DNA of 64,000 bases, from assembly GCA_016180135.1 (NCBI GenBank), contig JACPBV010000007.1:41248-105247 (forward strand), written 5' to 3'. Each line of letters begins with the position of its first letter. The stretch's first letter is position 1. Origin of the DNA: Candidatus Woesearchaeota archaeon. GTDB taxonomy: Archaea; Nanobdellota; Nanobdellia; Woesearchaeales; JACPBV01. Shown here piece after piece: positions 7,161 through 29,432 of this stretch. Under the pieces are notes generated by a model. That model saw only the letters and a list, made by a program, of their open reading frames with translations. It did no database searches and was not told where the DNA came from. A program made the translations under genes and the position numbers.

Positions 7161-7325
7161 AGGCTCCGTTCAAAGTATAGGTTAGCAGCCTAAAGTAAAA
7201 ATCACTTGCCTTCTGAATCCAGCTGACAGGGGGGTCGCCCCAAACGGGGGATGTCAGCAAACGGATAGAATATTTACGATTTTTAAGCTGCTAACCCGAG
7301 CGAAGCGAGATTTTGAACGGAGCCG
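7161..7325. ncRNA. candidate structured RNA or composite repeat: two long-range nested helices enclosing a GC hairpin
   Basis: GCTCCGTTCAAA (7163-7174) pairs with TTTGAACGGAGC (7312-7323); GGTTAGCAGC (7180-7189) pairs with GCTGCTAACC (7287-7296); inner hairpin CTGACAGGGGGGTCGCCCCAAACGGGGGATGTCAG at 7218-7258 has a homolog at 26440-26482. Confidence 0.3.
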
Positions 7326-7448
7326 GCAAACGACACAAGTATTTAGGCAAAATTATGCCGTTTGCTTACCCCTTAGAGGGGTACAAAAAACGTCTTTTCG
7401 TATTACGGACGGACCACAGCTGTATAATTATTTTTGTCCGTAAATATA
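7325..7448 (+). promoter_or_regulatory. conserved bipartite intergenic module, copy 1 (hairpin followed by T-tract, then palindrome-flanked AT-rich box)
   Basis: GCAAACGACAC...GCCGTTTGCT hairpin, then TATTACGGACGGACCACAGCTGTATAATTATTTTTGTCCGTAAATAT; homologous to 14249-14345 and 29341-29432; lies 60-80 nt upstream of the + strand gene at 7508. Confidence 0.45.
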
Positions 7449-7507
7449 ATTCTCAAATCACACCTTGACCATCAACTTTTAAATATACTCCTGCATTCTC
7501 TTCATCA

Positions 7508-7990
7508 ATGAAGGCGGGGGGGATTTTGCTTGTCGCTTTTTTTGGATTAGCATTTGCGCTGCTCATCTCGTTATATGCCTTGATTGAGATTGTGGAAGGG
7601 GGTTTGGCAGGAACTCAAAATGTTCCTAAACCTCAACAGGGGAACCTCAATATTTTTTTTGCGCCGCAAAAACTTTCCGGTATTGACCAGCTGAAGGCAC
7701 TGCAGCAGGAAACCGCTGAGCTCAGGAAAATGAACAACCTAGGGGAAGAGCGCGACCTTGAAGTCGGGAGATGCATCAGGAAGCTGACAAAGAACTGGAG
7801 GAGAAACATTGATGCAAGGTCTTTTGACGGAAAGATCGTGAGGAAGGACTCCAAAAGCAATGTCATCGAAGAATTTGATAAAGCCGTCAATCGCCCAGGG
7901 ACATCCATCTACGGTTTTGATGAAAGCCTCGACCGTGATTTCAGGAAGAGGCTGGAAAAGAAGTTTGATGATGGTGGGAGGGTTTGTTAA
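7508..7990 (+). CDS. hypothetical membrane-anchored protein (N-terminal TM helix)
   Basis: Hydrophobic N-terminus GGILLVAFFGLAFALLISLYALI followed by a charged soluble domain; no recognised family. Confidence 0.4.
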   Translation: MKAGGILLVAFFGLAFALLISLYALIEIVEGGLAGTQNVPKPQQGNLNIFFAPQKLSGIDQLKALQQETAELRKMNNLGEERDLEVGRCIRKLTKNWRRNIDARSFDGKIVRKDSKSNVIEEFDKAVNRPGTSIYGFDESLDRDFRKRLEKKFDDGGRVC

Positions 7991-8095
7991 AATGGGGGCT
8001 ATAAAGTCCATTGTAAGGTGGCATCGGGAGGAAAAGCAGAATCTCCTGGATGCTGGATACGGTAAAAACCAACATTTATAAATAAACTCCAATTT

Positions 8096-8563
8096 TTGTG
8101 TTATACAATGGCAAGGATGCATTCACGCAAGCGGGGAAAGGCAGGTTCGCATAAGCCGGCTAGCCAGAATTTACCGTCCTGGGTGAGATACAGCTCAAAG
8201 GAAGTTGAGATTCTTATCACCAAGCTCGCAAAAGAAGGGAACACGGCTGCTAAGATAGGGCTGATACTGAGGGATACTTACGGTGTTCCTAAGGAATCCC
8301 TTATAACAAAAAAATCCATTTCTGAAATTCTTAAAGAAAAAAGTTTGCTGTCTGAAATCCCTGAAGACCTGAAGTCTCTCATCAGGAAGAGCATCACGAT
8401 CCAAAAGCATCTGGCAGCAAACAGGAAAGACGGGACGGCCAAGCGGGGCATCCTTCTGACGGAATCGAAAATAAGGCGGATGCTGAAATACTACAAAAGA
8501 ACAGGAGCATTGCCGAGCGAGTGGAAATACTCCAGGGAAACTGCCGGGATGCTGGCAGAGTAA
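8096..8563 (+). CDS. rps15: 30S ribosomal protein uS15 (archaeal S15P / eukaryotic S13e type)
   Basis: MARMHSRKRGKAGSHKP...ILRDTYGVP...IPEDL..LIRKSITIQKHL...KRGILLTESKIRRMLKYYKRTGALP is collinear with archaeal S15P. Confidence 0.9.
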   Translation: MCYTMARMHSRKRGKAGSHKPASQNLPSWVRYSSKEVEILITKLAKEGNTAAKIGLILRDTYGVPKESLITKKSISEILKEKSLLSEIPEDLKSLIRKSITIQKHLAANRKDGTAKRGILLTESKIRRMLKYYKRTGALPSEWKYSRETAGMLAE

Positions 8564-8600
8564 GAGGTACGCTGGATTTCTTTTGTTGCACTCAATTTTT

Positions 8601-9452
8601 CTAAACCTTGCTTTTAGCCATAAATGACAAGGGATATATTTTCTTGAAATGCGCAAAAGCTTCCTTAAGATTTTTCTGGCTGTCAAAAATTCCAAAGACG
8701 CTTGAGCCGCTCCCGGACAGGAGTGATTGCACAGCACCCTTCATTTGCAGGCCTTCCTTTATCTTTTTTAACTCGGGATATTTCGTGAAGGTGGCTGGCT
8801 CAAAGTCATTATGAAATTTTGGGCAGCTCAATTCCTGATGAGCATAAACTTCATCTTTGCTTGAGCCATCTTCTAACGCTTCACGGCATTTTTCTTTTCC
8901 GCAATATCTGTCAAATTCAGCATACGCTTCTTTTGTTGGAATGCTGAAGCCGGGGAAGACAATGAGAAAATCCATCTGAGGCAAAGATATCTTTTCAACA
9001 ATCTCGCCTTTGCCGCTGACGGCGCAGCTTCCCCCGACGATAAAGAACGGAACATCGGAGCCGATCGCCGCTGCAATCTTCAGCAGATCCTTTTCAGGAA
9101 GGTTGATGCCCCAAAGGGTGTTCAGGCCCATCAGGACTGCCGCTGCATCGCTTGAGCCACCGCCGAGGCCGGCTCCGATAGGAATGTTCTTCTTTAATGT
9201 TATCTGGGCGCCTTTGGGAATCTGGAACACTTCTTTCAGGAGCATCGCTGCACGATAGCAAAGATTATCTTCGTTCTCAAGCTCCTTAATGTTGCAGGTG
9301 AGGATGACTTTATCTTCAGCCAAAGGCTCGAGCGCAATCTCGTCAAAGAGAGTTACTTCCTGGAATATTGAGCTGATCTCGTGGAAGCCGTCATTTCTCC
9401 GCCGGAGGATATTCAGAGTAAGGTTTACTTTTGCGTGGGCTTTGAGCATCAT
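8601..9452 (-). CDS. ispE: GHMP kinase, 4-diphosphocytidyl-2-C-methyl-D-erythritol kinase (IspE)-like
   Basis: KVNLTLNILRRRNDGFHEISSIFQEVTLFDEIALE N-terminal IspE pattern; GHMP ATP-binding loop PIGAGLGGGSSDAAAVLMGLN. Confidence 0.7.
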   Translation of the reverse strand: MMLKAHAKVNLTLNILRRRNDGFHEISSIFQEVTLFDEIALEPLAEDKVILTCNIKELENEDNLCYRAAMLLKEVFQIPKGAQITLKKNIPIGAGLGGGSSDAAAVLMGLNTLWGINLPEKDLLKIAAAIGSDVPFFIVGGSCAVSGKGEIVEKISLPQMDFLIVFPGFSIPTKEAYAEFDRYCGKEKCREALEDGSSKDEVYAHQELSCPKFHNDFEPATFTKYPELKKIKEGLQMKGAVQSLLSGSGSSVFGIFDSQKNLKEAFAHFKKIYPLSFMAKSKV

Positions 9453-9564
9453 AACCTAACGAGATGGAGGTGGAGAATAAAAAGTTTGCCAATGGAGGGG
9501 ATACCCCCAATCAATCTGGGTGATATGCGCATTTTCAATTACCTTTATATAATCCCTCTTTTTC

Positions 9565-12500
9565 TTGCTTTTGAGAATGGGGGATAACGGTTCAATCCAA
9601 CGGGAAGCGAAGGAATCTGATGACGATTCAGAGGAGTTTTCTGTCAACCTTTCGAAGATCAAAGGATTCTTTGGCAGGCTTAAAGGCAGGGTTTCATCAC
9701 AGAAAGTGGGTCATGAGGCTTCTCCGAAGGAATATATGAAACATAGCCAGATCGGAGAAGATGGGGAACCCGAAAAGGATTTGGAAACTGAAAGAGATAA
9801 AGAGCATCATAAAGGTAAAGGTCATGAGAGAGATGAAGACCATGACGGAGATGGGGAAGACGAGCAGTCAATCAGCCTAAACCCCCAGCTGGCTGCAAAG
9901 GTAAAAAAAGCACTATTCAAATACTGGCCGTATCTTCTTATCATTATTCCCATCCTCATAACGGTTAATGTCCGGGAGCAGACGCTTAATCTTACTATTG
10001 CCGATGACTGGGCAAGGAATGCCGTCTATGACTACTACAGGAACCAGATTACGGGGCAGGTGAGGCAGCAATATCCGAATCTTCCTGATCAGAATATCCA
10101 GGGCATCGTCAATGATGAATTCCAGAAGTTTGTTAACAGCAATCAGGCTTTGGTCCGGGATCAGATGAGGGGAACGGCCCAGAATTTCAAGGAGTATTTC
10201 CAGTATGAGTCCGGGAGTAAGAAATACGCTTACATGGGGGACATCGATTCTTATTATTGGCTGAGAGCTGCAAGAAACCTCGAGCAGAAGGGAACAATCT
10301 GCGATCTTATCGAAGACGGAAACTGCATCGATACGTATACCCTTGCCCCTGCCAAAGAAGGGATGTATCCCAACCTGCACCCGTATGCGATCTTCTACCT
10401 CTACAAAGCGCTCAAGCCGTTCAATAAAGACCTTACGCTGATGCAGGCAGAGCTTTTGGTTCCGACGTTCTTCGCCATCATCGTTGCAATCCTTACGTTT
10501 ATCATGATGTTTGAGGCGTTTGGGCCATTGGCTGCGCTGATATCCTCAGTCCTCATCTCGGTAAGCCCCATGTTTCTGACAAGAAGCCTTGGCTCCGACA
10601 CTGACGTCTATAATGTTCTTTTTCCGGTCATCGCAGTATTCTTTATTTTTGAGGCGTTCCATGCAAAGTCCTTAAAGCCCCGCATCATCCATTCCTCCCT
10701 TGCAGGCATCTTCCTTGGGTTCTACAGCTTCGCATGGGTCGGCTGGTGGTATCTTTTTGACTTTGCCATCCTGGCTCTTGTTATCGATTTTGCCATCAAG
10801 CTCTTTAAGCACGGGCACAAGGCAAAAGATTTCAGCATCAGAGGGCTCCGCAAATTCCCACACACCAAAGAATTTCTTTCCATCCTGCTTCCGCTGGCCG
10901 TGTTTACTCTCATCACCGTCGGAGCAGTCACCGACATCGGCAACATCACCACATTCTACAAAGAGCCGTTTGCCTTCATGAAAGCCAAATCGGCCGCTAA
11001 CCCAAGCTTATGGCCGAATGTCAAAACGACAGTCGCTGAATTCAATGAGTCTTCAGTTGAGACAATCGTTTCAAGCATGGGCGGCATCTGGCCTTTTTTC
11101 TTCGCATCTACAGGATTTTTGATACTCCTGTTCTACCGGTTCAGAAATTTCTCACGGGATTTCTTCTTTTTCTTTGTTACCCTGATCGCGCTTTACCTTG
11201 GGTATAAATGGGCTCCGGCCTATTACCTGCTGCTTGCGGTTATCCCCCTTACTTATTACTTCACCAACAGGTCATGGCCGCCGACAGTGTTTGTGATCTC
11301 AACAGCGCTTCTTTACTACCTTTCGACGCCGACGGGCACCAATTTGAGGCCATCCAGTTATCTGTTTATCTATGCCCTGCCTTTTTTGGCCGGAACAATC
11401 CTCTCCATCCGGTCGGAAGATGAGCATGACCAAAAGCTTTCTTTCCTTTTCTTTCTTTGGGTCGCTGCCTCGATTTTTGCTTCCCTCAAGGGAGTAAGGT
11501 TCATCCTGCTCATGGTTCCGCCTCTTGCAATCGGCGCAGGGATCACCTTCGGGTATATGAGCAGCGTCCTCTCAAGATTGGCAGCAAAGCCATTGAAGAT
11601 AAAAAAAGCAGTCATCTCGGCAATCCTCTTTTTGGTGTTTTCCTATTATCTGGTCGGGCCTGTCGGCGCAGGGATCAGCGTCGCCAAGAATTATCTTCCA
11701 AGTGTCAATGACCAGTGGTGGGATGTTCTTACAAAAATAAAAGACAATTCCCAGCCGAATGCCATCATCAACTCCTGGTGGGACTTCGGGCACTGGTTCA
11801 AGTATATTGCAGACAGGGGCGTTACCTTAGACGGCTCTTCACAGAACGCTCCCCCTCTGCATTGGCTGGGAAAAACTCTTCTCACTCCTGACGAGAATGA
11901 GGCCAGAGGAATCCTGCGGATGCTTTCGTGCGGGAGCAATAATGCTTTCCACGGCGTCAATGCGCAGGGCAATTTCACTCCGAAAGCGGTCGATGCGCTC
12001 CATACCATAACTGCCATCAAGGGCAAAGAGGATGCTGCAAAGGCGCTTCAGAAGCTGGGATACGAAGAAGAGAACATCCGGGCTGCGCTCACCTACAGCC
12101 ACTGCGATGCGCCTGAAGATTTCTTCATCACCAGCCAAGATATGGTCGGGAAGGGGGGCGTGTGGGCGCACTTTGGCAGCTGGGACTTCAACAGGGCATT
12201 CCTCGAAAGGACGTTCAGGGAATCAGGAAGTGAACCTGAATTTGCGATGAAGGTAAAAGAGCATTACAATTATACTGATGAGTTTATCCAGTCCTCTTAC
12301 CGGCAGCTTTCATCACTGAAATCGGATCAGGCGATCAACCAGTGGATCTCACCCTGGCCGAGCTATCTGGGCGGGCCGTCACGATGCAGGAATGAGTCAT
12401 CCAAGGCCACATGCAGGTTCCAGAATGTTGATGTGACTGTCAACCTGAGCAGGATGGATGCCTCAATCCAGACGCCGCAGGGGACCAAATATGTTGATGT

Positions 12501-12819
12501 CCTCAGCTGGACAACTCCTGACTCTGTTGTTTCAAAGAATTTCACCGGTGATACTATCGGCGTCGGTATGGTGCTGCTTATAGAGAAAAGCGGATATAAT
12601 GCCGTGTTCATGACACCGCAGCTTGTCAACAGCACTTTCACCAAGCTCTTTTACCTCGACGGCCACGGGACAAGGTTTTTTGACCTGTTTTCGGACACCC
12701 AGGGCATGAACGGCTTTTCCATCAAGGCATGGAAACTGAACTGGGAAGGGAGAAATGAGTCCATCAAAGTTGACAGGTTTAATGTGACAAACAGGTATTT
12801 CGGAAAGAATCAACCTTGA
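9565..12819 (+). CDS. aglB: archaeal oligosaccharyltransferase AglB (STT3 family) with acidic/His-rich N-terminal extension
   Basis: 13 predicted TM helices in the N-terminal half; WWDFGHW variant of the catalytic WWDYG motif at INSWWDFGHWFKYIADRG; long C-terminal periplasmic domain; the first 110 aa or so are low-complexity (DDDSEEF, HHKGKGHERDEDHDGDGEDEQ). Confidence 0.85.
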   Translation: MLLRMGDNGSIQREAKESDDDSEEFSVNLSKIKGFFGRLKGRVSSQKVGHEASPKEYMKHSQIGEDGEPEKDLETERDKEHHKGKGHERDEDHDGDGEDEQSISLNPQLAAKVKKALFKYWPYLLIIIPILITVNVREQTLNLTIADDWARNAVYDYYRNQITGQVRQQYPNLPDQNIQGIVNDEFQKFVNSNQALVRDQMRGTAQNFKEYFQYESGSKKYAYMGDIDSYYWLRAARNLEQKGTICDLIEDGNCIDTYTLAPAKEGMYPNLHPYAIFYLYKALKPFNKDLTLMQAELLVPTFFAIIVAILTFIMMFEAFGPLAALISSVLISVSPMFLTRSLGSDTDVYNVLFPVIAVFFIFEAFHAKSLKPRIIHSSLAGIFLGFYSFAWVGWWYLFDFAILALVIDFAIKLFKHGHKAKDFSIRGLRKFPHTKEFLSILLPLAVFTLITVGAVTDIGNITTFYKEPFAFMKAKSAANPSLWPNVKTTVAEFNESSVETIVSSMGGIWPFFFASTGFLILLFYRFRNFSRDFFFFFVTLIALYLGYKWAPAYYLLLAVIPLTYYFTNRSWPPTVFVISTALLYYLSTPTGTNLRPSSYLFIYALPFLAGTILSIRSEDEHDQKLSFLFFLWVAASIFASLKGVRFILLMVPPLAIGAGITFGYMSSVLSRLAAKPLKIKKAVISAILFLVFSYYLVGPVGAGISVAKNYLPSVNDQWWDVLTKIKDNSQPNAIINSWWDFGHWFKYIADRGVTLDGSSQNAPPLHWLGKTLLTPDENEARGILRMLSCGSNNAFHGVNAQGNFTPKAVDALHTITAIKGKEDAAKALQKLGYEEENIRAALTYSHCDAPEDFFITSQDMVGKGGVWAHFGSWDFNRAFLERTFRESGSEPEFAMKVKEHYNYTDEFIQSSYRQLSSLKSDQAINQWISPWPSYLGGPSRCRNESSKATCRFQNVDVTVNLSRMDASIQTPQGTKYVDVLSWTTPDSVVSKNFTGDTIGVGMVLLIEKSGYNAVFMTPQLVNSTFTKLFYLDGHGTRFFDLFSDTQGMNGFSIKAWKLNWEGRNESIKVDRFNVTNRYFGKNQP

Positions 12820-12853
12820 CGAGAAGTTGTGTTCGATCTATAACTTACTGATA

Positions 12854-13096
12854 TCACAATGGCTGGAGTTTGCCATCACTTATTGTTATCTCTAGTGAGT
12901 ATCCTTTATAGGAAAGGCCAGGAAATGTTTCATTTAATGCCTTTATAGCATCACATCTCGGATTCCTTTGAATATGTTTTTTTAAATCTACATCCTGGCG
13001 AACAGACAAGCCATAGACAATATGATTACCAACTGGAACCTGTCCAGGCCTTTGAGTAACAAGATACCCAAAATCTTTTATGGCTTCATTTACCAT
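12854..13096 (-). CDS. small hypothetical protein (80 aa)
   Basis: ORF only; no recognisable motif. Confidence 0.2.
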   Translation of the reverse strand: MVNEAIKDFGYLVTQRPGQVPVGNHIVYGLSVRQDVDLKKHIQRNPRCDAIKALNETFPGLSYKGYSLEITISDGKLQPL

Positions 13097-13169
13097 CGGC
13101 CAGGCAATAAATGTGAATAAAATTCCAACGCCCCGTTATGTTTAAAATTATACCGGGCTGATTTCGGAA

Positions 13170-14222
13170 TTATTTATGCATCAGCCTAACAAAAAAAGTG
13201 AAACCGTCTTCTGCAATGATGAGATGTTGATTGTCCTGCCTTGTTTCATAGACTCTTGTTTGTTGAGGTATCAGATTATAAACGCTCTCGGCCGGATTAT
13301 GAGGCTTGTATCCTGCTTCACTCAAAACCCCAGCCCGTTTCTCAGGCGGAATAGGATTTCCGCAGATTTCCATAACAGCTGCGACTGGGGGATCCATAAT
13401 GTAATGCAGCCTCAACCCGTCTTCTGATGAAGCATCACTTATTTGCGAAGGATCTAACCTCAACCAATGCTCAAGGTAATTATGCAAACCAGGAGGAGTT
13501 ATCCTCATCAATGCAATCGTTGAAGGGCCATCACTTTTTTCAGGCTCGGCCTTACCAATTTGCCTGACCACAGCTATGAGATTATACCCTCCACCGCTAA
13601 AACTGTAAATTTGTGTGTAACTTCCTAAAAAGTGAAGGGATCTTTGATAAAAACCTCTTCTTCTTAGTTCTCCAATACCCTTAGCAAAGGGCAGTTGCTG
13701 GCCGCAGATGTCTTCTATCGCTTTTACAATCCTCTCCGGAGCTTTGATAGATTCAATCTCCATATCGCCTCCCTGAGGAGGAAAATATTTTAAATTATTT
13801 CCGTCAAGCTCTATCCCCCATCTGTTGGTAATCCCATCAATCTGTTGAAAGGTAAATCCACTTCTCAGAAAAAAATCAGAAATCAAATTCACAGGCTTTT
13901 CTTCTTGTGGTTCCTGAGGCTCTTGAAGGCTTAAGGCAGGAGGACAATGGGGCATAATCTTTCTTTGCCAAACTCCTTCTTCGCTTAATGCCCATCCTTG
14001 TTTACCCAGCAAAGCAATTGTTTCATCTCTTGAAGGCCTTAAACTGGAATCATAAGGAAAATCAGATTGTTGTTGTTCAATCATCCTTAACCTTGACAAA
14101 TTAATGGGGGGTGAATGATGTGGAATATCCCCATCGGTATCTCCACCATCTGGAACTGTGCCTTCTGGTTCAACAAAATCGTCAAGTGCTCCATTACTAT
14201 GCACTGGTTGATGAATCTTCAT
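13170..14222 (-). CDS. hypothetical protein (350 aa), Pro-rich N-terminus, no recognised family
   Basis: Long ORF with coherent composition; QEPQEPQEEKP linker; no motif I can assign. Confidence 0.45.
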   Translation of the reverse strand: MKIHQPVHSNGALDDFVEPEGTVPDGGDTDGDIPHHSPPINLSRLRMIEQQQSDFPYDSSLRPSRDETIALLGKQGWALSEEGVWQRKIMPHCPPALSLQEPQEPQEEKPVNLISDFFLRSGFTFQQIDGITNRWGIELDGNNLKYFPPQGGDMEIESIKAPERIVKAIEDICGQQLPFAKGIGELRRRGFYQRSLHFLGSYTQIYSFSGGGYNLIAVVRQIGKAEPEKSDGPSTIALMRITPPGLHNYLEHWLRLDPSQISDASSEDGLRLHYIMDPPVAAVMEICGNPIPPEKRAGVLSEAGYKPHNPAESVYNLIPQQTRVYETRQDNQHLIIAEDGFTFFVRLMHK

Positions 14223-14248
14223 CCCCTCCTTGAGAACCTCTTTTTACT

Positions 14249-14345
14249 ATAGCAAAGGACACAATATTTTAAGCATAATGTAACTGTCCTTTGCTTATTA
14301 CGAGTGGACAACTATTGCCCATTTATTTTTGTCCACGAGTATAAA
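14249..14345 (+). promoter_or_regulatory. conserved bipartite intergenic module, copy 2
   Basis: ATAGCAAAGGACAC...GTCCTTTGCT hairpin, then TATTACGAGTGGACAACTATTGCCCATTTATTTTTGTCCACGAGTAT; aligns with copy 3 with compensatory changes (AAGGAC/GTCCTT versus AAAGAC/GTCTTT). Confidence 0.45.
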
Positions 14346-14425: not shown

Positions 14426-15598
14426 TCATTTTGCCTCTCTTGCATTTTCTCTTTTCTTCAGCAGCACAGCGCAAAAGCACTGGAGCCCTTCACCTTTCCC
14501 CCAGGCAGTCAATTCCTCGCCGGAAGTTGCTGCGATGCCGACCTGCTCTTCATTTAGCAGGCAGAGCCTTGCAATATTTGCTTTGATCCTGCCCTCATAG
14601 CTGAAAAGCCTCGGTTTCTTCCCTTCAACCATCACTGCGATATTGCTGACTGCAAAGCCTTTTTCTTTAGCCATGCCGAGGGCAACCTCAAGATAGACCC
14701 TGCTGGTCTTTATTCCCTGTCTGCAAAGGGGGTCTGCATAGAAGCCCAGGCTTTTGCCGCCTACAGCAGTGCTTATGGCGTTGAACAATGCATGGAGGAT
14801 GACATCACCGTCGGAATTTGCCTCCAAGCCATTTTCATTGGGAATTTCAACCCCTCCAAGGATCAGCCTTTTTGGATTGATGTCAAACTTGTGGGAATCC
14901 TGGCCGAAACCGATGCGGTCAGCCTGGATGACAAGCCTTGCATTCTCCATGTCAATCGGATTTGTTATCTTGAAATTTTCCTTTGAGCATTCGATAAGCT
15001 TTACCTTGGCTCCAATCTTCTCAATCAGCTCCATGTCGTCTGTGCCATAATATTGCTCGTTGTAGGCATGCACCATCGCCTGAGTCATCAGATCAAATCT
15101 TGCTGCCTGCGGTGTCTGCATATGCCATAAGCGGTTCCGGTCAAGGGTCTTTATGACAAATCCTTTATCATCTGCCTCTTTGACAGTGTCTGCTGCCCTG
15201 AATCCTGCCGCAGCAGCCCCGCTCTCCCCTGCTGCCATGATGACCCTTCCGATGAGATTATCGTCGATGAATGGGTTTGCGCCGTTATGGATAAGGACAA
15301 TATCCGAAGGCTCTGCCTTTATTGCTTTGATGCCTTCATAGGCGCTGTCCTGCCTGTTCTCGCCCCCCTTGACAAGCCCAGTTACCTTTGAAAGCTGTTT
15401 TTTGTCGATAAGATACTGTATTTCCCCAAGATTTTCCTCATTTGCGACAATGGTGATGGTGTCAATGAAACTGGAATCCTCAAAAGCCTGCAGGGTGTGC
15501 CCAAGAAGAGGCTCTTTGTTCAGGAGCATCAGCAGCTTATTGATGGGGGAGTGCATCCGTGTCCCTTTCCCTGCCGCAAGGATGATGGCGTGGTTCAT
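14426..15598 (-). CDS. ispDF: bifunctional IspD/IspF (MEP cytidylyltransferase / MEcPP synthase)
   Basis: N-terminal ILAAGKGTRM nucleotidyltransferase motif (IspD); C-terminal RIGFGQDSHKF...GGVEIPNENGLEANSDGDVILHALFNAISTAVG is the IspF metal-binding signature. Confidence 0.85.
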   Translation of the reverse strand: MNHAIILAAGKGTRMHSPINKLLMLLNKEPLLGHTLQAFEDSSFIDTITIVANEENLGEIQYLIDKKQLSKVTGLVKGGENRQDSAYEGIKAIKAEPSDIVLIHNGANPFIDDNLIGRVIMAAGESGAAAAGFRAADTVKEADDKGFVIKTLDRNRLWHMQTPQAARFDLMTQAMVHAYNEQYYGTDDMELIEKIGAKVKLIECSKENFKITNPIDMENARLVIQADRIGFGQDSHKFDINPKRLILGGVEIPNENGLEANSDGDVILHALFNAISTAVGGKSLGFYADPLCRQGIKTSRVYLEVALGMAKEKGFAVSNIAVMVEGKKPRLFSYEGRIKANIARLCLLNEEQVGIAATSGEELTAWGKGEGLQCFCAVLLKKRENAREAK

Positions 15599-18942: not shown

Positions 18943-19010
18943 GAAACCCGACCAGAGCGGCCAAAGGGGTAATCATGTGTTCCCCTCTGCGGACGGAGGG
19001 CGAGCAATCC
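18943..19010. repeat. repeat family R1, copy 2
   Basis: AAACCCGACCAGAGCGGCCAAAGGGGTAATCATGTGTTCCCCTCTGCGGACGGAGGGCGAGCAATCC is homologous to 5531-5600. Confidence 0.6.
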
Positions 19011-19690: not shown

Positions 19691-20633
19691 GTTGGGGGAG
19701 ATAATTGTGCTAAACCATAATTATGTTACGGTAGTATCTCTTTGGCGGTTTATGGAGGTACCATGGCATACACCAAAGAGTTTAAACTTAGGATTATAAA
19801 ACATGTGAGAATGGGAATAACCCCCATTGAGCATATAGCGACGATACGGAAAATTCCAAAGCAAACCATCTACCGGTGGCTTAAATCTATAAGGCGATAC
19901 GGTGAATCTGGGCTTGAAAATGGATGTCCTGGTGCTAAACCGTTTCAAATTAATGTGACAGCCCAGCAGATGATACTTGTCCGCTGGAAAAAGCGCCCAA
20001 GAGGCTCAGCAAAGCTCTGGAGGGAGCTTAAAGAAGAAGGTTTTGGGATCTCTCAGCGACAGATTCAAAAAGCCTACAACCAACACGGTCTTAGAATGAA
20101 CAAGCGAGAAAGGCCCTCTCAGCTGAAATTCGTAAAATACGAATGGCCAAAGCCCAATATGCTCTGGCATACTGACTGGACAATCTGCCCTTTCACCGGT
20201 AACCACCTGATAGCATTCATTGACGACAATAGCCGATACATCGTCCATGCTGAGCTGTTCAACAGCCCAACTACAGAAAACACGCTCCTGGCTTTTCGGG
20301 CCGCAATAGCAAAGCATGGAAAGCCAGAAGCCATCCTTACGGACAATGGAACACAATTCACGCCAGCACGAGCATCAAAAGGCCCGTTTTCCCAATGGTG
20401 TGAAGAGCAGGGGATAAGACATATTATTGGGCGAGTCAATCACCCCCAAACGAATGGAAAAATAGAAAGATGGTTTGGGACGTACAAACAGGAGAAAAAA
20501 CAAGAAGAGCCGCTTGATTCGTTCGTTAAGTACTATAATGACGAACGCTTACATCAGGGAATTAACTATAAAGTACCATCTGAGAGGTACAAAAGTAACA
20601 TTAATGCGGTTTAGTAGAGTTGGGGGAGATAAT
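19691..20633 (+). mobile_element. IS481-family insertion sequence with 15-bp flanking direct repeats GTTGGGGGAGATAAT
   Basis: Direct repeats at 19691-19705 and 20619-20633; imperfect terminal inverted repeats TGTGCTAAACCATAATTATGTT and AACATTAATGCGGTTTAGTAGAG; single transposase ORF inside. Confidence 0.7.
19763..20614 (+). CDS. IS481-family DDE transposase (HTH plus rve integrase core)
   Basis: GGAGGT SD upstream of ATG at 19763; HTDWT...FIDDNSRY...LTDNGTQF...NHPQTNGKIERWFGTYK is a DDE (D,D,35E) integrase core; the ORF-track start at 19742 is a TTG. Confidence 0.8.
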   Translation: MAYTKEFKLRIIKHVRMGITPIEHIATIRKIPKQTIYRWLKSIRRYGESGLENGCPGAKPFQINVTAQQMILVRWKKRPRGSAKLWRELKEEGFGISQRQIQKAYNQHGLRMNKRERPSQLKFVKYEWPKPNMLWHTDWTICPFTGNHLIAFIDDNSRYIVHAELFNSPTTENTLLAFRAAIAKHGKPEAILTDNGTQFTPARASKGPFSQWCEEQGIRHIIGRVNHPQTNGKIERWFGTYKQEKKQEEPLDSFVKYYNDERLHQGINYKVPSERYKSNINAV

Positions 20634-22160: not shown

Positions 22161-22279
22161 TTTACCACCTTTTTACTACCAATAATACTCAATAAGGAGA
22201 ATATATTTTTAAATGTTGTTGTTTGGATTGGGCATATTACCTTGTCAACTCAAATTAGGACGCCATCAAATAAAAATAA

Positions 22280-23068
22280 TTATTTTGCTTTAATCCTGCA
22301 CCCACCGCTCGGCAATGCCCTGATAATCTCGTCCAGAGAGCCGCCAATCTTGTGCTGGATCCTTTTTGCTATATCAGATGATTTTTCCCTGCCCTGCTCA
22401 ACCTCAACCAGCTTCTCACAGCGCTTTTTTACAGCAGATAACGGGCCTGCCATCATTTTTCCGTTGAAATTCCCGATGGCGCATGCAACCTCGTTGTCAA
22501 CATAATTCTTCTTTCCGTAGATCATGAACGCCCCTTTTGCCAGGAATTCTCCGGCCTGCGCTTTTTTCGAGACCTGGCCGGGCAATACCCAGAACACAGG
22601 AGTATTTCCCATCCCTAACTTCCAGGCTTTTGAGAATGCAGCTGTAGCAGAGGCAGCTTCTTTTATTGACTGTTCATCAATCTTTTTCCCATCTGCCTTC
22701 ACAACAAAGAACGGGCTGCCTGCAATGTCCGTATGAAAGACGATATCATCTTTGCCGGCATGCTTCTTGATGATGATCTCATTGGTCGTCGCATCCCGGC
22801 CACCTACAACCAGAAAGCCGGCAGAGGAAACAAACCAGCGGAATTTCTCATACCATTCTTTTTTGCCGGCGCTGATGGACTGTTTCTTATCTTCCTGCTG
22901 CTGGTGCTCAACAGCAGCTTCTTTCTCAAGCTTTGCGAGCTTTTTTTTCGCATCTGCGATCGCCTTAAGCGCACCTTCTTTCTTTTTTTTGAGCTTTTTG
23001 GCTTTTTCGTAATAGAGCGAAGCGTTCTCTTCCAGAGATTTTCGCACATCAAGGGTTATGAGCGGCAT
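22280..23068 (-). CDS. NFACT-R (DUF814) domain RNA-binding protein, short Rqc2/NEMF-like
   Basis: WYEKFRWFVSSAGFLVVGGRDATTNEIIIKKHAGKDDIVFHTDIAGSPFFVV matches the DUF814/NFACT-R core; N-terminal coiled coil. Confidence 0.6.
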   Translation of the reverse strand: MPLITLDVRKSLEENASLYYEKAKKLKKKKEGALKAIADAKKKLAKLEKEAAVEHQQQEDKKQSISAGKKEWYEKFRWFVSSAGFLVVGGRDATTNEIIIKKHAGKDDIVFHTDIAGSPFFVVKADGKKIDEQSIKEAASATAAFSKAWKLGMGNTPVFWVLPGQVSKKAQAGEFLAKGAFMIYGKKNYVDNEVACAIGNFNGKMMAGPLSAVKKRCEKLVEVEQGREKSSDIAKRIQHKIGGSLDEIIRALPSGGCRIKAK

Positions 23069-23080
23069 TGAAACCCCGGC

Positions 23081-23392
23081 CTACCTTGCCTTATGGGAAG
23101 AGGCGAACATCGACCTCAGATCGTCAGAAAACAGCAATACCAGGAACAGGACATACCCCAGCGAAAATATCAGCAGGGCTATCATCAGCGGCCTTGTGGG
23201 CAGCGGGGAAAGCAGTTCGCCGGAATACCTTGCAGCCTGAAGGCGAAGGTAAACCATCCAGGAGACGCTTAATGCCAGAGGCATCCCCAGAATAAATTTC
23301 TTCCAGGGCTGCATTAAGGGATGTTTTTTCAGCGGCTCCCGCATTTCACTTTTTTGCCTTTTCATTTTGCTTTCACCGGAAAAATTCAGCAT
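23081..23392 (-). CDS. small membrane protein
   Basis: Two predicted TM helices; overlaps the upstream pilin-like gene. Confidence 0.3.
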   Translation of the reverse strand: MLNFSGESKMKRQKSEMREPLKKHPLMQPWKKFILGMPLALSVSWMVYLRLQAARYSGELLSPLPTRPLMIALLIFSLGYVLFLVLLFSDDLRSMFASSHKAR

Positions 23393-23832
23393 TCACTTAT
23401 GCTCTCAACGGTAAACCCTTTTTTTGCGCAGATATACTCTTTTCCCTGATAAGAAAATGTCGGAGTAAATAAGCCTTTCTGTATCTTCCCAAAGTTTCCT
23501 CCGAGCGGGATGGCAACCTTAACCAGCTCGCCGATAGGGATGTCAAGCTTTGCTGACGAGGCTATGGGCTCCTTATCGGTTGCGAATGCGGCCTTGATGC
23601 CCTGCAAGAAAACTCCGCCGTCATTCTGGGCTGTAAGCTGGACATAACTGTCCTTGAGGCAGATTGCGGGCTTTCCGGAAATAGTTACAATAGACAGCGA
23701 CGCTTTAAGGCAGTCCACTTTTTCGTCAGGAAAATTCGTCTTTCCCCAGCTGATGACTAATCCGCCGAGCCCAATCGCAAAGACCAGAAGTATGATAGTC
23801 GAAAGCAAAGGGGAGATGGCTTTTTTGTCCAT
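23386..23832 (-). CDS. archaeal type IV pilin-like protein (class III signal peptide)
   Basis: N-terminus MDKKAISPLLSTIILLVFAIGLGG is a canonical archaeal class III (prepilin-like) signal peptide. Confidence 0.6.
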   Translation of the reverse strand: MDKKAISPLLSTIILLVFAIGLGGLVISWGKTNFPDEKVDCLKASLSIVTISGKPAICLKDSYVQLTAQNDGGVFLQGIKAAFATDKEPIASSAKLDIPIGELVKVAIPLGGNFGKIQKGLFTPTFSYQGKEYICAKKGFTVESISEC

Positions 23833-23834
23833 GG

Positions 23835-24149
23835 TCAGCGCTTCCTGTAGAGTGCTTCAGCGATCTTCTGGTTGAGCCACTGCTCTTCCCTGTGAGAAAT
23901 GAGGATGTAAGGGAGTGAACTGATGATGAGGATAAAGATGCCTATAACCACAAGGACATTGAGCATGGCTGAGGTGATATATTTGAACGTGAATCCAAAT
24001 ACTCCTACAACGAGGAATGAGAAATAAAGCATAAGGCCTTTATTGAGGGCAATCTGGGCTTTTTCCCTCCTGACCTTGGAGCGCTCTATCTGGAGGAGGG
24101 TAAGCTCAATATTTGACTGGTCTCCGGTATCTGAAGCAGCCTTTGGCAC
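23835..24149 (-). CDS. small membrane protein (first gene of the pilin-like operon)
   Basis: Two TM helices; 2 nt from the downstream gene. Confidence 0.3.
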   Translation of the reverse strand: MPKAASDTGDQSNIELTLLQIERSKVRREKAQIALNKGLMLYFSFLVVGVFGFTFKYITSAMLNVLVVIGIFILIISSLPYILISHREEQWLNQKIAEALYRKR

Positions 24150-24319
24150 AAAGCCCTTTCCAGGAATGAGATATATAAAGGTTGTGATTGAACCCCCGCA
24201 ATGGGCTGGGGGTGTTGGCTAAAGCCTGATACATAAGATTGGCATGAAAGAAATCGCGCAAGAATTTATGAAAAATGATATGCAAACGAATGAGCTAAAA
24301 TCTCCCCCTCAATTACCTC

Positions 24320-24826
24320 TTATTTCCCTTCCTTCCCCAATTCCTCAATCCTGTTCTTGATATTTTCGATAGTCTTGGTATTGTCCTGCATGTTCAGGAG
24401 GCTGCCGCATTCAGGGCATTTGAATGCAAATTCAGTGGCCTGCTCGAAATCAAACCTTGCGCAGGCAGACTTGCAGATGTAAAAATTGCCTTTGTTGGCT
24501 TCCTCTTTCTTCAGCTGCTCCCGGAGCTTGTTGAGCTTCTCTTCCCTGACCTTGCTGACGAGGTCTGAAGCGCGCTTCCTGTCAAACGTCCAGTAGCTGA
24601 TATACCACCCCTTTTTCCTGTCCTTTTTACGTATGTAGGTGCAGACATTGAAAGAATTGAGGTTATAGAGCAGATTCCTGGTAGTCTGCATGTCAAGCTT
24701 GAGCTTGTCAGCGATGATGAACTCGGAAACGTTCTTCTTGTCTTTGATGTAGTCTATAATAGAGAGAGCTTCATTTCCGCCAATCTCAGTGATCAGCCCG
24801 GATATCTTTTTGTTGCTTAAAGCCAT
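24320..24826 (-). CDS. tfe: transcription factor E (TFIIE-alpha homolog)
   Basis: N-terminal winged helix (ALSIIDYIKDKKNVSEFIIADKLKLDMQTTRNLLYNL...KGWYISYWTF) and C-terminal zinc ribbon (CKSAC...CPECG). Confidence 0.7.
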   Translation of the reverse strand: MALSNKKISGLITEIGGNEALSIIDYIKDKKNVSEFIIADKLKLDMQTTRNLLYNLNSFNVCTYIRKKDRKKGWYISYWTFDRKRASDLVSKVREEKLNKLREQLKKEEANKGNFYICKSACARFDFEQATEFAFKCPECGSLLNMQDNTKTIENIKNRIEELGKEGK

Positions 24827-25071
24827 TCGTTCCTCTCATGCGAGAGCCTATCCTCTGGCAAAATTTTAATACCTTACCCCCCAAGAATAGCCCTTCCTGG
24901 CTTATTTCTGACCTAACTTCTATATAAATCTTTCTATTTTTTTCACTGAAGAGTTACAAAACGAGAATTTGACAGCATGCCTAATCAAATCTTACTGACA
25001 ATAAGGAACCTGGCTTATGGGGAACTGCTTCAAGGAATCAGGCTAATGGGGAAACGCTTCAATGAATCTGG

Positions 25072-25281
25072 CTAATGGGTGGCGGCTTTCTTCTGCCCGT
25101 AGCAGTCCTGGCAATAAGTATGAATGGTCACTCCATCGTTTGTGCTCAGTTTGCAGTCATTTGCCGATGAAATCTGCTTGCCGCAGCTTTCGCATTTATT
25201 CCACATGCTTTTCCCACCCCACACCCCTATCAGGAGAAAAGGCAAGGCTTCTATATTAAAGTTTCGATAAGAAAAGGCCAA
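25072..25281 (-). CDS. small zinc-ribbon protein (likely starts at internal Met MWNKCESCGK)
   Basis: CESCGK...CQDCYG, two CxxC pairs. Confidence 0.3.
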   Translation of the reverse strand: MAFSYRNFNIEALPFLLIGVWGGKSMWNKCESCGKQISSANDCKLSTNDGVTIHTYCQDCYGQKKAATH

Positions 25282-25342
25282 AAATCACACAAGAACTCAG
25301 TGATAAAAAATCAAAATAAAAAGAAAAAAGGAATGAAAAAGC

Positions 25343-25494
25343 TTAATTCTTGGCTTTTCCTACAATCCTGAAGACTTTTGTGCCGCATTTGCCGCAGACA
25401 CCCTTCATAGCCTTCATACCATTCTTCATGGTGACTTCCTTGGCGTCTTTAATGTCAACCTGCGCCTGGCACTTCATGCATCTTCCTTGTACCA
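25343..25494 (-). pseudogene. small zinc-ribbon protein gene with an apparent single-base frameshift
   Basis: Frame 1 gives MVQGRCMKCQAQVDIKDARKSP-stop; a +1 frame continues EVTMKNGMKAMKGVCGKCGTKVFRIVGKAKN-stop; inserting one A in GCCAGGAAG would restore a 50-aa CxxC...CxxC protein. Confidence 0.3.
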
Positions 25495-25665
25495 TTGTTT
25501 CAAACCTCCAAAGCTTTAGAGTTTATCTAATCAGTTATAACATCCTGTTGAAATAGGTTTTATTTATAAAGGTTTGCCAAAAATTGCAGGTTTGGCTTGA
25601 TTGGGCATTAAGTTCAGCACATCTGCAATCATTTATAGGGAAGACACACTTGAGGTTACTTGGGG

Positions 25666-26331
25666 TCACTTGACAATCCCTAAAAGCTGCTTGATATCGT
25701 CTATGACAAAATCTGCCTTGACATCTTTTGCTTTAGTGTTGCCGTATCTTGCGAAGCAGGTCTTCATTCCAATTTTTCCTGCACCTTCGATGTCACGATG
25801 AGGCATATCTCCGACCATAAGGCATTCTTCCGGCTTTAGCTTAAGCTTCCTGAGCGCAGCCTGGAAGGGGAAAGCATGGGGTTTCAGCTTTTTGGTATCC
25901 TCAAACGTGACTACTACGTCAAAAAAGTTCCCTAAGCGCATCGCCATAAGCCTGAGCCATGCCTTCAGCTTTGGCGCATCAGTGACAATGCCAAGCTTGA
26001 GGCCTTTTCCTTTCAGCTTCAGCAGGACATAGTCTGTATGGGGGTAAGGGGTCAGATGGCCTTCTCTCGTATTCCTGTAAGCCACAATGGCATTTGCAAG
26101 AATCCTGTAATCTATCTCTCCGGCCTCTTTCCTAAGGAATTTCTGAAATATCTCATGGTCTTCAAGGCCAACCTCAAAATAAATCTTGAAAAGCTTCTCC
26201 ATGGCCTCTTCCCGCTTGATGTCGAGCCCTGCGTCAATCATCGCGTCTATCGCAGCCTCGCAGCTCAGCCGTTTGATCCTCATAAAGTCAATAAGAGTAT
26301 TGTCAAGGTCGAAGAGTATCGCTTTAATCAT
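25666..26331 (-). CDS. HAD-superfamily hydrolase
   Basis: MIKAILFDLDNTLID (DxD motif I); GDMPHRDIEGAGKIGMKTCFARYG (motif IV); the ORF-track start at 26448 is probably over-extended. Confidence 0.7.
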   Translation of the reverse strand: MIKAILFDLDNTLIDFMRIKRLSCEAAIDAMIDAGLDIKREEAMEKLFKIYFEVGLEDHEIFQKFLRKEAGEIDYRILANAIVAYRNTREGHLTPYPHTDYVLLKLKGKGLKLGIVTDAPKLKAWLRLMAMRLGNFFDVVVTFEDTKKLKPHAFPFQAALRKLKLKPEECLMVGDMPHRDIEGAGKIGMKTCFARYGNTKAKDVKADFVIDDIKQLLGIVK

Positions 26332-26439
26332 ATCCCTTGGAAATGAGTGATAGTTTAAATTAATATCGGGAATTGGGCCAACCTGTGGCATATTTTCCCG
26401 TAATTCACGAGATTTGAGATGCTTTCGGTTTTTAGCTAA

Positions 26440-26482
26440 CTGACCCATTCCCCTTTGGGGCGGCCCCCTTGTCAGCTGGATT
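26440..26482. repeat. GC-hairpin repeat (family shared with 7218-7258)
   Basis: The reverse complement reads TCCAGCTGACAAGGGGGCCGCCCCAAAGGGGAATGGGTCAG, homologous to TCCAGCTGACAGGGGGGTCGCCCCAAACGGGGGATGTCAG. Confidence 0.5.
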
Positions 26483-26590
26483 CAAAGGGCAAATGATTTT
26501 TACTTTAGGCTTCTAACCTATATTTTTTGACGGAGCCCATAGCCTATAGTAAACTATTTAAAGGGCCGATTTACCCTCCGGACAGCAAAG

Positions 26591-26929
26591 ATGAACGAAA
26601 AAACTGATGATATCTCCCGTGTTTTACAGTCGGTAAGGTCTGCCGAATCAGAGGCAAAGCAGATTATCGAACAGGCACGGGAAAGAGGAAAGCAAATTGT
26701 TACGGATGGCCATGCTCATTTCTTAAGGCTGAAGGAACAGAAGATAGCAGAGTCCAGGCTAAAAACCGAAGAGAGAAAAAAGAATCTTCTCGACGGACTG
26801 AAGGGGGAGCATGATAAGATTATAAAAGCATCTGTCCAGGAAGCCCAAAAGCTTGAATCTTCCGCCCAAAAGCACATTTCCAGAGCAGTCAATAAAGTTC
26901 TTGAAACCTTTGAAGCTGATATGCCATGA
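26591..26929 (+). CDS. atpH: A-type ATP synthase subunit H
   Basis: 112-aa charged coiled-coil protein immediately upstream of atpI, overlapping by 4 nt; position and size typical of ahaH. Confidence 0.6.
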   Translation: MNEKTDDISRVLQSVRSAESEAKQIIEQARERGKQIVTDGHAHFLRLKEQKIAESRLKTEERKKNLLDGLKGEHDKIIKASVQEAQKLESSAQKHISRAVNKVLETFEADMP

Positions 26930-28911
26930 ACCGCCAAGAGACTCCTGAACCGATGGCAAAACTTGTTATGATTACTCCTGAGTCTAAGCTAAAGCCGGTG
27001 ATCAGGGCGCTTCACGCTCTTGGCGCATTGCACATCGAAGAGCATAAAAAATCTGAAACCATGGATATAGGCTCACCGATGAAAGAGTCCGAACAGATAT
27101 CTTCTTTATTGGTCAGGATACGGTCCCTCCAGTCATCTTTAGCGCTGAGCCTCAAACCCGGCAGGGATTTAGGAGGGGATTTTGGCAGGGAACAAAAAGC
27201 GGATTTACACCGGAATTTAGGAAGGAGTGATAAAATCCAATCTGCCAAACAATCAAGTTCCCAGCAGCCGGGAAAAGATGCTTTTTCAGCCTCAAGAATC
27301 AGAGAGATGGAATCTTTTTACGGAAAGCTTGATAAGCAGCTTTCTATCCTTCAAGCTGAGTCCGATACGCTTAAGCAGGCTGTTTCCCAGCTTTCACTTG
27401 AGCTGAAGAATCTCAAAGAGATCGATGCGCTCGGCATTGACATCCCGTTTTTCTCAGGATTTAGCTCTCTCTCCTCATTTGTTGGGACTGTGAAGGCTGC
27501 TGAAGGGCTGCCTGAAAAGCTCGCCGATGCTATCTCTCAAGTGACTGCTGACTTTTCTCTCAGAATTGCCAATCATGAGCAGCCTCTTGTCGCAGTTTTT
27601 GTGAGAAAAGATGCGGAGAGGGGCGTCGCAGGAATCCTTGCAGAATTTGATTTTAAACCAATGGCAGTCCCTGTCCTGGGAAAGGGGGAGACCTTAAAGC
27701 AGGCCATAAAGGACAAGGCCCGGGAATTGGATCTTGCACAAAAGGGAGTAAAAGAAACACTTCTTGAGATATCCCAAATCGCACACCGGCAAAGTAAAAG
27801 GATGCTTCAGGACGAGGCTGTATTATCGGCAGAGATTGAGCGGCAGGAAGCCCCGTTACGATTCGGCCGGACTGATTTTGCCTATGTGGTGACAGGCTGG
27901 ATTCCGGAAAAGGACTGTAAAAGCTCGATGAAGGAGATCAGGAAAGCAGCTGCCGGAAAAATATTTATCGAAGCTTCTGAGCCCGGGCATCACGACAAAG
28001 TTCCTGTGAAGCTCCATAACAGCCCGGGAACAAGGCCTTTTGAGTTCTTCCTCAACCTTTATTCTCTCCCCTCTTACGGGGAAAAGGATCCCACGAAAAT
28101 AATCTCTATCCTGTTTCCTATCCTTTTTGGCTTTATGCTCGGAGATGTCGGCTACGGGATTGTCACCCTTGCCCTTTCTTATTACCTGAAGAAAAAATTC
28201 GGAGACCAGCAGCTTTTTGGGATCATCAAATATGCCTCAATCTCATCAATCTTCTTCGGAATCCTCTTCGGCGAATATTTTGGCTTCGAGGAATTTGGGC
28301 ATTTTGAGTTCTGGCATATCCTCAGCAGAGCGCATGACCTTACTGAGCTTGGAATCATCGCAATAGCGATCGGCTTCGTCCACCTGAACATCGGCCTTGG
28401 GCTGGGATTTTCAAATGTGCTCAGGCATCATGGCTTAAAGATGGCAATCTTTGAAAAGGGAAGCTGGTGGGTGCTCCAGGCCGGAGCGGCATTGATCGGG
28501 CTTTATCTTGCGAAACTGCTTCCAACAATCAGCCTTTATGCCGGAATATCTCTTATCCTTGCTTTTGCTGTTATGATTGTCAAAGGCGAGGGAATTAAGG
28601 GCCTTGTTGAGATGCCTGCGATCTTCAGCAATATGCTGAGCTATGCGAGGCTTATGGCCATCGGAGTATCGTCTGTAGAGCTTGCTATCGTCATCAACGA
28701 GCAGTCATTGGAGATGTTCCATAAAGGGGCTGCTGGTGTTATCGGCGGAATCCTGGTTTTGCTTGTCGGCCATTCCATCAATCTTGGCCTCGGCCTTCTT
28801 GGCTCATTTTTGCATTCGTTGAGGCTGCATTACGTGGAATTTTTCAGCAAATTTTTTACTGGCGGCGGCATGCGATACCAGCCTTTTGGGAAAAAAGAGG
28901 GGAGTGATTAG
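26926..28911 (+). CDS. atpI: A-type ATP synthase subunit I (a-subunit)
   Basis: Soluble coiled-coil N-terminal half, then a C-terminal domain of about 7 TM helices with the conserved Arg region (NMLSYARLMAIGVSS). Confidence 0.85.
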   Translation: MNRQETPEPMAKLVMITPESKLKPVIRALHALGALHIEEHKKSETMDIGSPMKESEQISSLLVRIRSLQSSLALSLKPGRDLGGDFGREQKADLHRNLGRSDKIQSAKQSSSQQPGKDAFSASRIREMESFYGKLDKQLSILQAESDTLKQAVSQLSLELKNLKEIDALGIDIPFFSGFSSLSSFVGTVKAAEGLPEKLADAISQVTADFSLRIANHEQPLVAVFVRKDAERGVAGILAEFDFKPMAVPVLGKGETLKQAIKDKARELDLAQKGVKETLLEISQIAHRQSKRMLQDEAVLSAEIERQEAPLRFGRTDFAYVVTGWIPEKDCKSSMKEIRKAAAGKIFIEASEPGHHDKVPVKLHNSPGTRPFEFFLNLYSLPSYGEKDPTKIISILFPILFGFMLGDVGYGIVTLALSYYLKKKFGDQQLFGIIKYASISSIFFGILFGEYFGFEEFGHFEFWHILSRAHDLTELGIIAIAIGFVHLNIGLGLGFSNVLRHHGLKMAIFEKGSWWVLQAGAALIGLYLAKLLPTISLYAGISLILAFAVMIVKGEGIKGLVEMPAIFSNMLSYARLMAIGVSSVELAIVINEQSLEMFHKGAAGVIGGILVLLVGHSINLGLGLLGSFLHSLRLHYVEFFSKFFTGGGMRYQPFGKKEGSD

Positions 28912-29088
28912 CGCTCAAGGTTTTATCGTTCAGGCCGGATAGATGAGGATGATGTTTATTAATCCAAACAGCATAAAGAAAATCGATAGGAAGGATATAA
29001 AATAATAACCATAAATAAACAATAAATAAACAATAAATTAATAATAAACATACAATAAATAAACAAAACCAATTGGAGGGAAAAGAAT

Positions 29089-29313
29089 ATGGCAGAAATC
29101 GGAAGCGCAATCATAGCAACAAGCGCTGCAGTTGCTATCGCTACAAGCGCATTTGCAGCAGCATGGGCGGAATACAAGATAGGAACAGCGGCAATAGGGG
29201 CGATGGCAGAAAAGGAGGAACTGTTCGGCAAAGGTTTGATTTTGACCGTCATTCCGGAAACAATTGTCATCTTTGGCCTTGTTGTGGCAATCCTTATCCT
29301 CGGAAAAATTTAG
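29089..29313 (+). CDS. atpK: A-type ATP synthase proteolipid subunit K (c-subunit)
   Basis: 74-aa two-helix hairpin; GAMAEKEE loop; conserved Glu in helix 2 (IPETIVIFGLVV). Confidence 0.85.
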   Translation: MAEIGSAIIATSAAVAIATSAFAAAWAEYKIGTAAIGAMAEKEELFGKGLILTVIPETIVIFGLVVAILILGKI

Positions 29314-29340
29314 CCGGGATAAGCCTATCTTGCTGCCAAT

Positions 29341-29432
29341 ATAGCAAAAGACACGAACATTTAGACAATAAACATGTCTTTTGCTATTACGAACGGACAA
29401 CTACTGTTCAATTATTTTTGTCCGTAAGTATA
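29341..29432 (+). promoter_or_regulatory. conserved bipartite intergenic module, copy 3 (atpK-atpE intergenic)
   Basis: ATAGCAAAAGACAC...GTCTTTTGCT hairpin, then ATTACGAACGGACAACTACTGTTCAATTATTTTTGTCCGTAAGTAT; ends about 22 nt upstream of the atpE ATG. Confidence 0.45.

Follow-up and report, generated by a model that had tools for sequence, protein, structure and literature searches.

In bacteria, a MITE (miniature inverted-repeat transposable element) is defined as a small element with TA at its termini and stable stem-loops, and flanking by TA on either side marks IS630/Tc1-mariner elements or, more generally, most bacterial MITEs (PMC5896051). In a census of MITEs, one Woesearchaea genome, with 105 per Mb, ranks with the densest known from archaea (PMC11602168). 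The subject here is a bipartite, hairpin-bearing intergenic repeat of ~95 nt that occurs three times in 64 kb of DNA (hereafter the window) from a Candidatus Woesearchaeota metagenome-assembled genome (MAG; assembly GCA_016180135.1, locus tags HYU14_), namely positions 41,248 to 105,247 of contig JACPBV010000007.1, which is 113,705 nt long. The three modules are very probably copies of a non-autonomous, MITE-like transposable element specific to Woesearchaeota-type DPANN archaea. The family is new, being MITE-like with a mosaic build in which extra hairpin modules lie between two hairpin-forming ends, and it is probably mobilized in trans by a TA-duplicating transposase; no published description of this particular family was found.

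The closest known relatives are TA-flanked MITEs such as Correia and, by architecture, the bacterial interspersed mosaic elements (BIMEs) and REPINs (PMC2817692). With the prokaryotic MITEs that have TA termini (Correia of Neisseria, RUP, and MITEEc1), the family has in common a non-coding unit of ~90–300 nt, dispersed intergenic copies, TA-flanked insertion, putative inverted-repeat ends, stem-loops, nesting, and possible incidental promoter or terminator effects. It differs from them in its weak terminal inverted repeats (15/25), in the covarying hairpin at each end, in the mosaic modules, in residing in DPANN archaea, and in having no cognate insertion sequence (IS) or transposase in the copies and flanks examined. 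Bacterial repetitive extragenic palindromes (REPs), BIMEs, and REPINs, which are associated with REP-associated tyrosine transposases (RAYTs), resemble it in their short imperfect palindromes, mosaic arrays in both orientations, high intergenic copy number (including positions within operons), and a mobile unit made of two inverted hairpin units. In contrast to these, the present family has neither a RAYT-like gene in the flanks examined nor a GTAG-type head, and it displays a clear TA...TA insertion signature, units of ~45 nt, and large AT-rich loops. The palindrome-associated transposable elements (PATEs) of the IS200/IS605 type, known from archaea and cyanobacteria, are likewise non-coding and have subterminal hairpins and a sharp 3′ boundary a few nucleotides past the last hairpin. 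Unlike those of PATEs, the present ends appear to be inverted copies of one another, each adjoining TA; the flanks examined hold no TnpA or TnpB, and no strand or orientation asymmetry was detected.

The element inserts precisely at a TA dinucleotide. Four independent pairs of filled and empty sites were found, each with a single TA when empty and TA-element-TA when filled: copy 2 of the window versus locus L075 of the sister genome JACPBU01, L028 versus L024, L030 versus L118, and L121 versus L158, L166, and L144. Copy 2 (14248–14343, + strand; TA, a 92-nt element running from TAGCAAAGGAC to GTCCACGAGTA, and TA) has no counterpart at the orthologous spacer of the sister genome, the two sequences being 87% identical across the junction; the empty site reads ...ctgcT-TA-Gtaaaaagagg..., and the window, on the gene strand, ...ctatT-TA-(92-nt element)-TA-Gtaaaaagagg.... 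At copies 1 and 3, the contigs of relatives end inside or beside the element, and within the window the empty-site comparison is that of copy 2. Contigs of related strains repeatedly break at or within copies, including those of the same or a sister strain at copy 3, as expected of a dispersed repeat. Nesting, truncation, module inversion, and synteny breaks at element ends are found as well. Slightly upstream of the empty site, L075 carries a tandem repeat of ~14 nt (GGGTTATCATCTAA, four times, at 2855–2920) that the window does not have. In the two closely related genomes of L070 and L054, synteny is lost precisely at that end of a shared copy which carries the box (L070 position 1192, L054 position 1117); the internal modules of this copy also differ, which suggests recombination between copies.

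The basic unit is ~91 nt long, begins with TAGCAAAnGACA, finishes with TTGTCCGTGAGTA, and has TA at each flank. Its 5′ part, hairpin A, consists of TA-TAGCAAAnGACAC, an AT-rich loop of 20–30 nt, and GTCnTTTGCT, while the 3′ part, a palindromic box, reads TTACGA-(A/G)(C/T)GGACAA, followed by a 17-nt AT-rich loop with a terminal run of five Ts (T5) and by TTGTCC(G/A)(T/C)-(G/A)AGTA-TA. Longer versions of 150–300 nt have small hairpin modules added between hairpin A and the box, some of them in both orientations, and other small repeats are often nested in the loop of hairpin A. Every copy has sharp boundaries, with TATAG... on the 5′ side and ...GTATA on the 3′ side. Loop sequences differ between subfamilies and stems are kept; the 47-nt box is near-identical across genomes whose genes are only ~75% identical. 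Judged from its sequence, the element appears to be composed of two diverged, inverted hairpin units, one per half, since the reverse complement of every full copy fits the covariance model at 35–50 bits and the terminal 25 nt match as inverted repeats at 15 of 25 positions; the alignment score of one half against the other was reached by 41 of 2000 shuffles.

All three window copies lie on the + strand and combine a hairpin on the 5′ side with a palindromic box on the 3′ side. Both TTATTTTTGTCC and TATTACGNNNGGAC are present at all three sites and nowhere else in the window, a count matched by none of 100 shuffles, and so the repeated unit described in the original prediction, which had been made from the DNA letters, is real. 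Searching the window with a covariance model of 34 related copies recovered the three copies and nothing further at E<1, with scores of 103.2 bits for copy 3, 102.5 bits for copy 2, and 41 + 25 bits for copy 1, which is split. Copy 3 (29340–29432) comprises TA, an 89-nt element from TAGCAAAAGAC to GTCCGTAAGTA, and TA. Its hairpin A (29343–29385) has an 11-bp stem, AGCAAAAGACA/TGTCTTTTGCT, and its box hairpin (29387–29430) has an outer stem, TAC/GTA, then a 2x2 internal loop (GA opposite AA here but opposite GA in the consensus of the family), a stem of 8 bp, and an AT-rich loop of 17 nt with the T5 run at its end. Copy 1 is composite and degenerate, with the same architecture as the JACPBU01 copies L010, L018, and L066. 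The three sites had been located correctly, but copy 1 had been placed at 7325–7448, whereas it spans 7150–7448 with its flanking TA, the 5′ arm being split by a nested foreign element; TA and TAGCAAACGA come first, followed by the nested element, the rest of hairpin A (7325–7366), two extra hairpin modules (ACCCCTTAGAGGGGT at 7367–7383 and a degenerate CAAAAAACGTCTTTTCG at 7384–7402), and the box (7403–7448). The three belong to two subfamilies and are old and divergent from one another.

The covariation that had been read from the stems stands, the pairings having been given correctly. In hairpin A, AAGGAC:GTCCTT in copy 2 corresponds to AAAGAC:GTCTTT in copy 3 and to AAACGAC:GCCGTTT in copy 1, the last with one A·C mismatch, and in the box, copies 1 and 3 have the arms ACGGACAA/TTGTCCGT where copy 2 has GTGGACAA/TTGTCCAC, a double compensatory change. 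Two independent sets of copies give the same picture. Among 34 distinct copies from GTDB genomes, 98.9% of cells are paired, 7 of 22 pairs have changed on both sides, and one stem position shows all four Watson–Crick pairs; among 44 distinct metagenome copies, from the matches listed (as are all counts below for metagenome copies, the ~200 enclosed-gene checks, and gene orientation), 99.1% are paired and eight pairs have changed on both sides. Controls consisted of 500 shuffles of each set and of 3′ partners slid out of register. No shuffle of either set came up to the observed percentage paired, covariation score, or tally of pairs altered on both sides; for the tally of further pair types, 2 and 16 of the 500 shuffles did so, and the signal was lost when the 3′ partners were slid. 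When each strand is folded singly, the two hairpins are again predicted for both, with z-scores of −5 to −6.6. The cells that depart from Watson–Crick pairing comprise 12 G·T versus 8 A·C, and nothing thus points to one RNA strand as the molecule under selection.

The box was looked for as an exact pattern in GTDB species-representative genomes, metagenomes, and the viral contigs of IMG/VR. The GTDB genomes hold 71 loci, 70 of them in archaeal MAGs, and metagenomes at least 120, mostly in groundwater or aquifer assemblies; in total, there are at least ~200 copies in public Woesearchaeota/Nanoarchaeota MAGs and groundwater metagenomes. SRR4343429 and SRR4343430 are among the groundwater sequencing runs in which the genome of the window is present. 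A viral origin was rejected, the box pattern having no match in IMG/VR contigs. Single fragmented MAGs contain from ~17 (JACPJQ01) to ~30 (CAYWNO01) loci, with near-identical copies within a genome, and copies occupy unrelated intergenic spacers whose flanking genes are unrelated housekeeping genes. Three loci in Muribaculaceae-like sequence of 50% GC (L003, L083, and L108, the first being the one non-archaeal GTDB locus) have no covariance-model match and were set aside as chance pattern matches. The element is also present in MAGs labeled "uncultured Methanosarcinales", namely CAZRRL01 (L070), CAYWNO01, CAYIKX01, and CAZXRI01. Spread across phyla was nevertheless rejected: over 1 kb, L070 shares 96% identity with L054 of the Woesearchaeota MAG JACPJQ01, which makes these labels unreliable and probably wrong.

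Taken as a MITE-like element, the family has a core of 91 nt with composites of up to ~300 nt, is non-coding, and occurs as dispersed similar copies; it also has the presence/absence polymorphism of MITEs and, as in the IS630 type, TA on both sides of filled sites. A transposase supplied in trans would recognize the two ends and cut and paste the element, and this enzyme would most simply be a TA-duplicating DDE transposase of the IS630/Tc1-mariner type. The hairpins and the invariant TTACGA...GAGTA frame would be needed by the transposition machinery or by a single-stranded DNA intermediate, and only copies that keep both would propagate. It is proposed that such propagation of foldable copies alone accounts for the covariation of the stems and for the near-identity of the box across genomes whose genes are only ~75% identical. 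Effects on neighboring genes would then be a by-product, as might apply to copy 2 in the leader of the gene at 13170–14222 and to the T5 run of copy 3 between atpK and atpE.

Several observations weigh against this model. No open reading frame (ORF) is enclosed by any of the ~200 copies, and no autonomous partner was found; a gene between hairpin A and the box, as an autonomous copy might have, was sought and not seen, apparent orphans proving to be variant hairpin A sequences. All-against-all clustering of ORFs from ~1.1 Mb of flanking DNA revealed no transposase that recurs near copies, the recurrent clusters being only housekeeping genes (for example, aRF1, glycosyltransferases, transketolase, and CDP-alcohol phosphatidyltransferase), and no DDE_3-type transposase was seen in the loci examined. 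Pfam scans of ~50 window ORFs found a single IS, an IS481-like element at 19706–20619 with a helix-turn-helix and rve transposase (19763–20614), 39-nt imperfect inverted ends, and a flanking 14-nt direct repeat, TTGGGGGAGATAAT; it was rejected as the partner, its ends being unrelated to those of the ~95-nt element and its duplication being 14 nt long. The terminal inverted repeats are weak, and the target is always TA, so that a 2-bp duplication is indistinguishable from a terminal TA borne by the element. Ordinary DDE transposases need no hairpins within each end, and therefore the strong covariation of the stems is left unexplained by the simplest IS630-type model. Template-switch correction in quasi-palindromes could also give paired changes without selection.

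Since the DDE model does not require covarying hairpins within the ends, a mechanism that depends on structure, like those of REP/RAYT or IS200/IS605 elements, was also considered. Here the repeat would be REP/BIME-like or PATE-like, a HUH tyrosine transposase of the RAYT or TnpA type would recognize the hairpins as single-stranded DNA, and the terminal TA would be part of the element or a cleavage site, not a duplication. In keeping with this, each end is a hairpin maintained by compensatory changes, small palindromic modules form a mosaic in both orientations as in bacterial BIMEs (PMC2817692), the TA...TA arrangement is indistinguishable from element-borne TA, and the roughly equal numbers of G·T and A·C fit a palindrome acting at the DNA level. 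However, the flanks examined contain no recurrent Y1/HUH gene or small ORF near copies, the alignments show no conserved REP-type 5′ tetranucleotide and no GTAG-like head, and the orientation of copies to genes is near random. Moreover, the ends appear mutually inverted and have TA on both sides, which is a DDE/MITE signature, unlike the asymmetric ends of IS200/IS605 elements. This explanation is accordingly regarded as unlikely. Quite unlikely, too, is an archaeal counterpart of REPINs and BIMEs in which mobilization depends on structure in single-stranded DNA, through an enzyme not yet recognized, and the mosaics are kept because they are useful to the host. If so, in DPANN episymbionts, whose genomes are tiny, they may serve as operon-internal terminators, insulators, or hairpins at mRNA ends, and the near-identity of the 47-nt box across genera may reflect ongoing exchange between co-resident archaea.

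The original prediction suggested a host-selected terminator-promoter cassette or operator, in which hairpin A and the T-rich sequence after it would terminate upstream transcription and the AT-rich loop of the box would be a TATA region overlaid by an operator palindrome and would drive the gene downstream. A few features are compatible with it. A TATA-like stretch, TATAATTA or AATTATTTTT, lies in the box ~25 nt before the 3′ end of the element, and the T5 run could terminate archaeal transcription; both readings lean on what is established for promoters and oligo-T terminators in archaea. MITEs of bacteria, Correia elements among them, are likewise known to supply promoters (cited in PMC5896051). 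The T-tract assigned to hairpin A, in contrast, consists mostly of the stem's own 3′ arm, and the sole free T5 run is inside the box (TTATTTTTG). Proximity to + strand genes was borne out for copies 1 and 3, which finish 59 nt (copy 1) and 21 nt (copy 3) upstream of start codons on the + strand, but copy 2 sits between minus-strand genes, points away from both, and is missing in the sister genome. For ~170 distinct copies, orientation was scored from genes called simply as ORFs. Of the 126 cases that could be scored, 51 have the box end toward a gene start; in spacers between co-directional genes, 21 copies are forward versus 29 reverse when pooled, which is not significant; and start codons lie anywhere from 6 to >500 nt away. 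In the GTDB set, an apparent bias (18 reverse vs. 5–6 forward, p ~0.01–0.02) was not replicated in the metagenome set (11 vs. 17), and its reading as selection against the T5 run was dropped. Together with the nesting and with loops that vary between subfamilies while stems are kept, these results leave a cassette or operator very unlikely. The absence of preserved pairing among related copies, or of positional bias relative to gene starts, had been named beforehand as evidence of an ordinary decaying repeat; pairing is preserved, whereas no positional bias to gene starts is seen. Preserved pairing here is a property of the mobile element family and not of a host regulatory site.

The gene context of the window copies is as follows. 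Copy 1 is in a 507-nt spacer between divergent genes. Copy 3 lies forward between atpK (29089–29313) and atpE (29454–30023) of an A-type ATPase operon, and its T5 run and TATA-like stretch fall between these two genes. The neighbors of copy 2 are an IspD/IspF fusion (14426–15598) and a conserved hypothetical gene (13170–14222), both on the minus strand and thus opposite to the copy, which lies upstream of the latter, 25 nt from its start codon. This short distance follows from the 350-aa reading of that gene, which is backed by the sister orthologue (347 aa) and a conserved GGAGG-ATG; the deposited start is 46 codons later (304 aa). On the gene strand, a TATA-like sequence, TTTATATT, occurs ~27 nt upstream of the insertion point and is conserved in both genomes, and archaeal promoter geometry therefore makes it probable that the 5′ leader of this gene includes copy 2. 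The IspD/IspF fusion (of the methylerythritol phosphate pathway) and a MetK-type S-adenosylmethionine synthetase gene (59459–60634) are of bacterial type, which suggests that this DPANN archaeon acquired them from bacteria.

The weakest alternative, which had also been raised, is a family of small structured RNA genes or of cis-acting RNA leaders or trailers whose hairpins act in RNA, and it is extremely improbable: in its favor are the two stable hairpins with covariation, the 2x2 internal loop of the box stem, which is of the tandem G·A/A·G type and has conserved closing pairs, and the probable position of copy 2 in a 5′ leader, but there is no match in Rfam 15 at the gathering score and none on the elements even at E≤1, G·U is not in excess over A·C, both strands fold equally well, orientation to genes is not fixed, module number and nesting vary, and copies are present or absent at orthologous sites.

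The sequence nested in copy 1 is a 163-nt element of a different repeat family (7162–7324, strand unassigned), with inverted-repeat ends (GGCTCCGTTCAAA) and an 8-nt direct repeat, GCAAACGA, at 7154–7161 and 7326–7333. Its relatives occur in the MAG loci L024 and L028, where the ~95-nt element inserts into it. Other interspersed or tandem repeats are found in window spacers at 5311–5374, 35873–35936, and 56621–56684, and at 5532–5606 and 18944–19000, and further repeat families at 31788–31816 and 33834–33862, 33965–34098, and 25003–25089. Among the spacers filled by repeats are three unusually long ones of the ATPase operon, atpF-atpA, atpA-atpB, and atpB-atpD.

Recognizing the MITE-like family explains the inflated spacers of a very small archaeal genome, including those in its ATP synthase operon, as well as the fragmentation of assemblies from such organisms. 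It provides a searchable marker, TTACGAACGGACAAC...TTTTTGTCCGTGAGTATA, that ties contigs to Woesearchaeota and reveals mislabeled MAGs. It also calls for caution, because mobile elements whose ends must fold give the same covariation signal as a host regulatory RNA or operator, and covariation among genomic repeats alone is no proof of either. With their covarying hairpins and a transposase not found, these elements are a reasonable entry to the study of DNA mobility in DPANN archaea.

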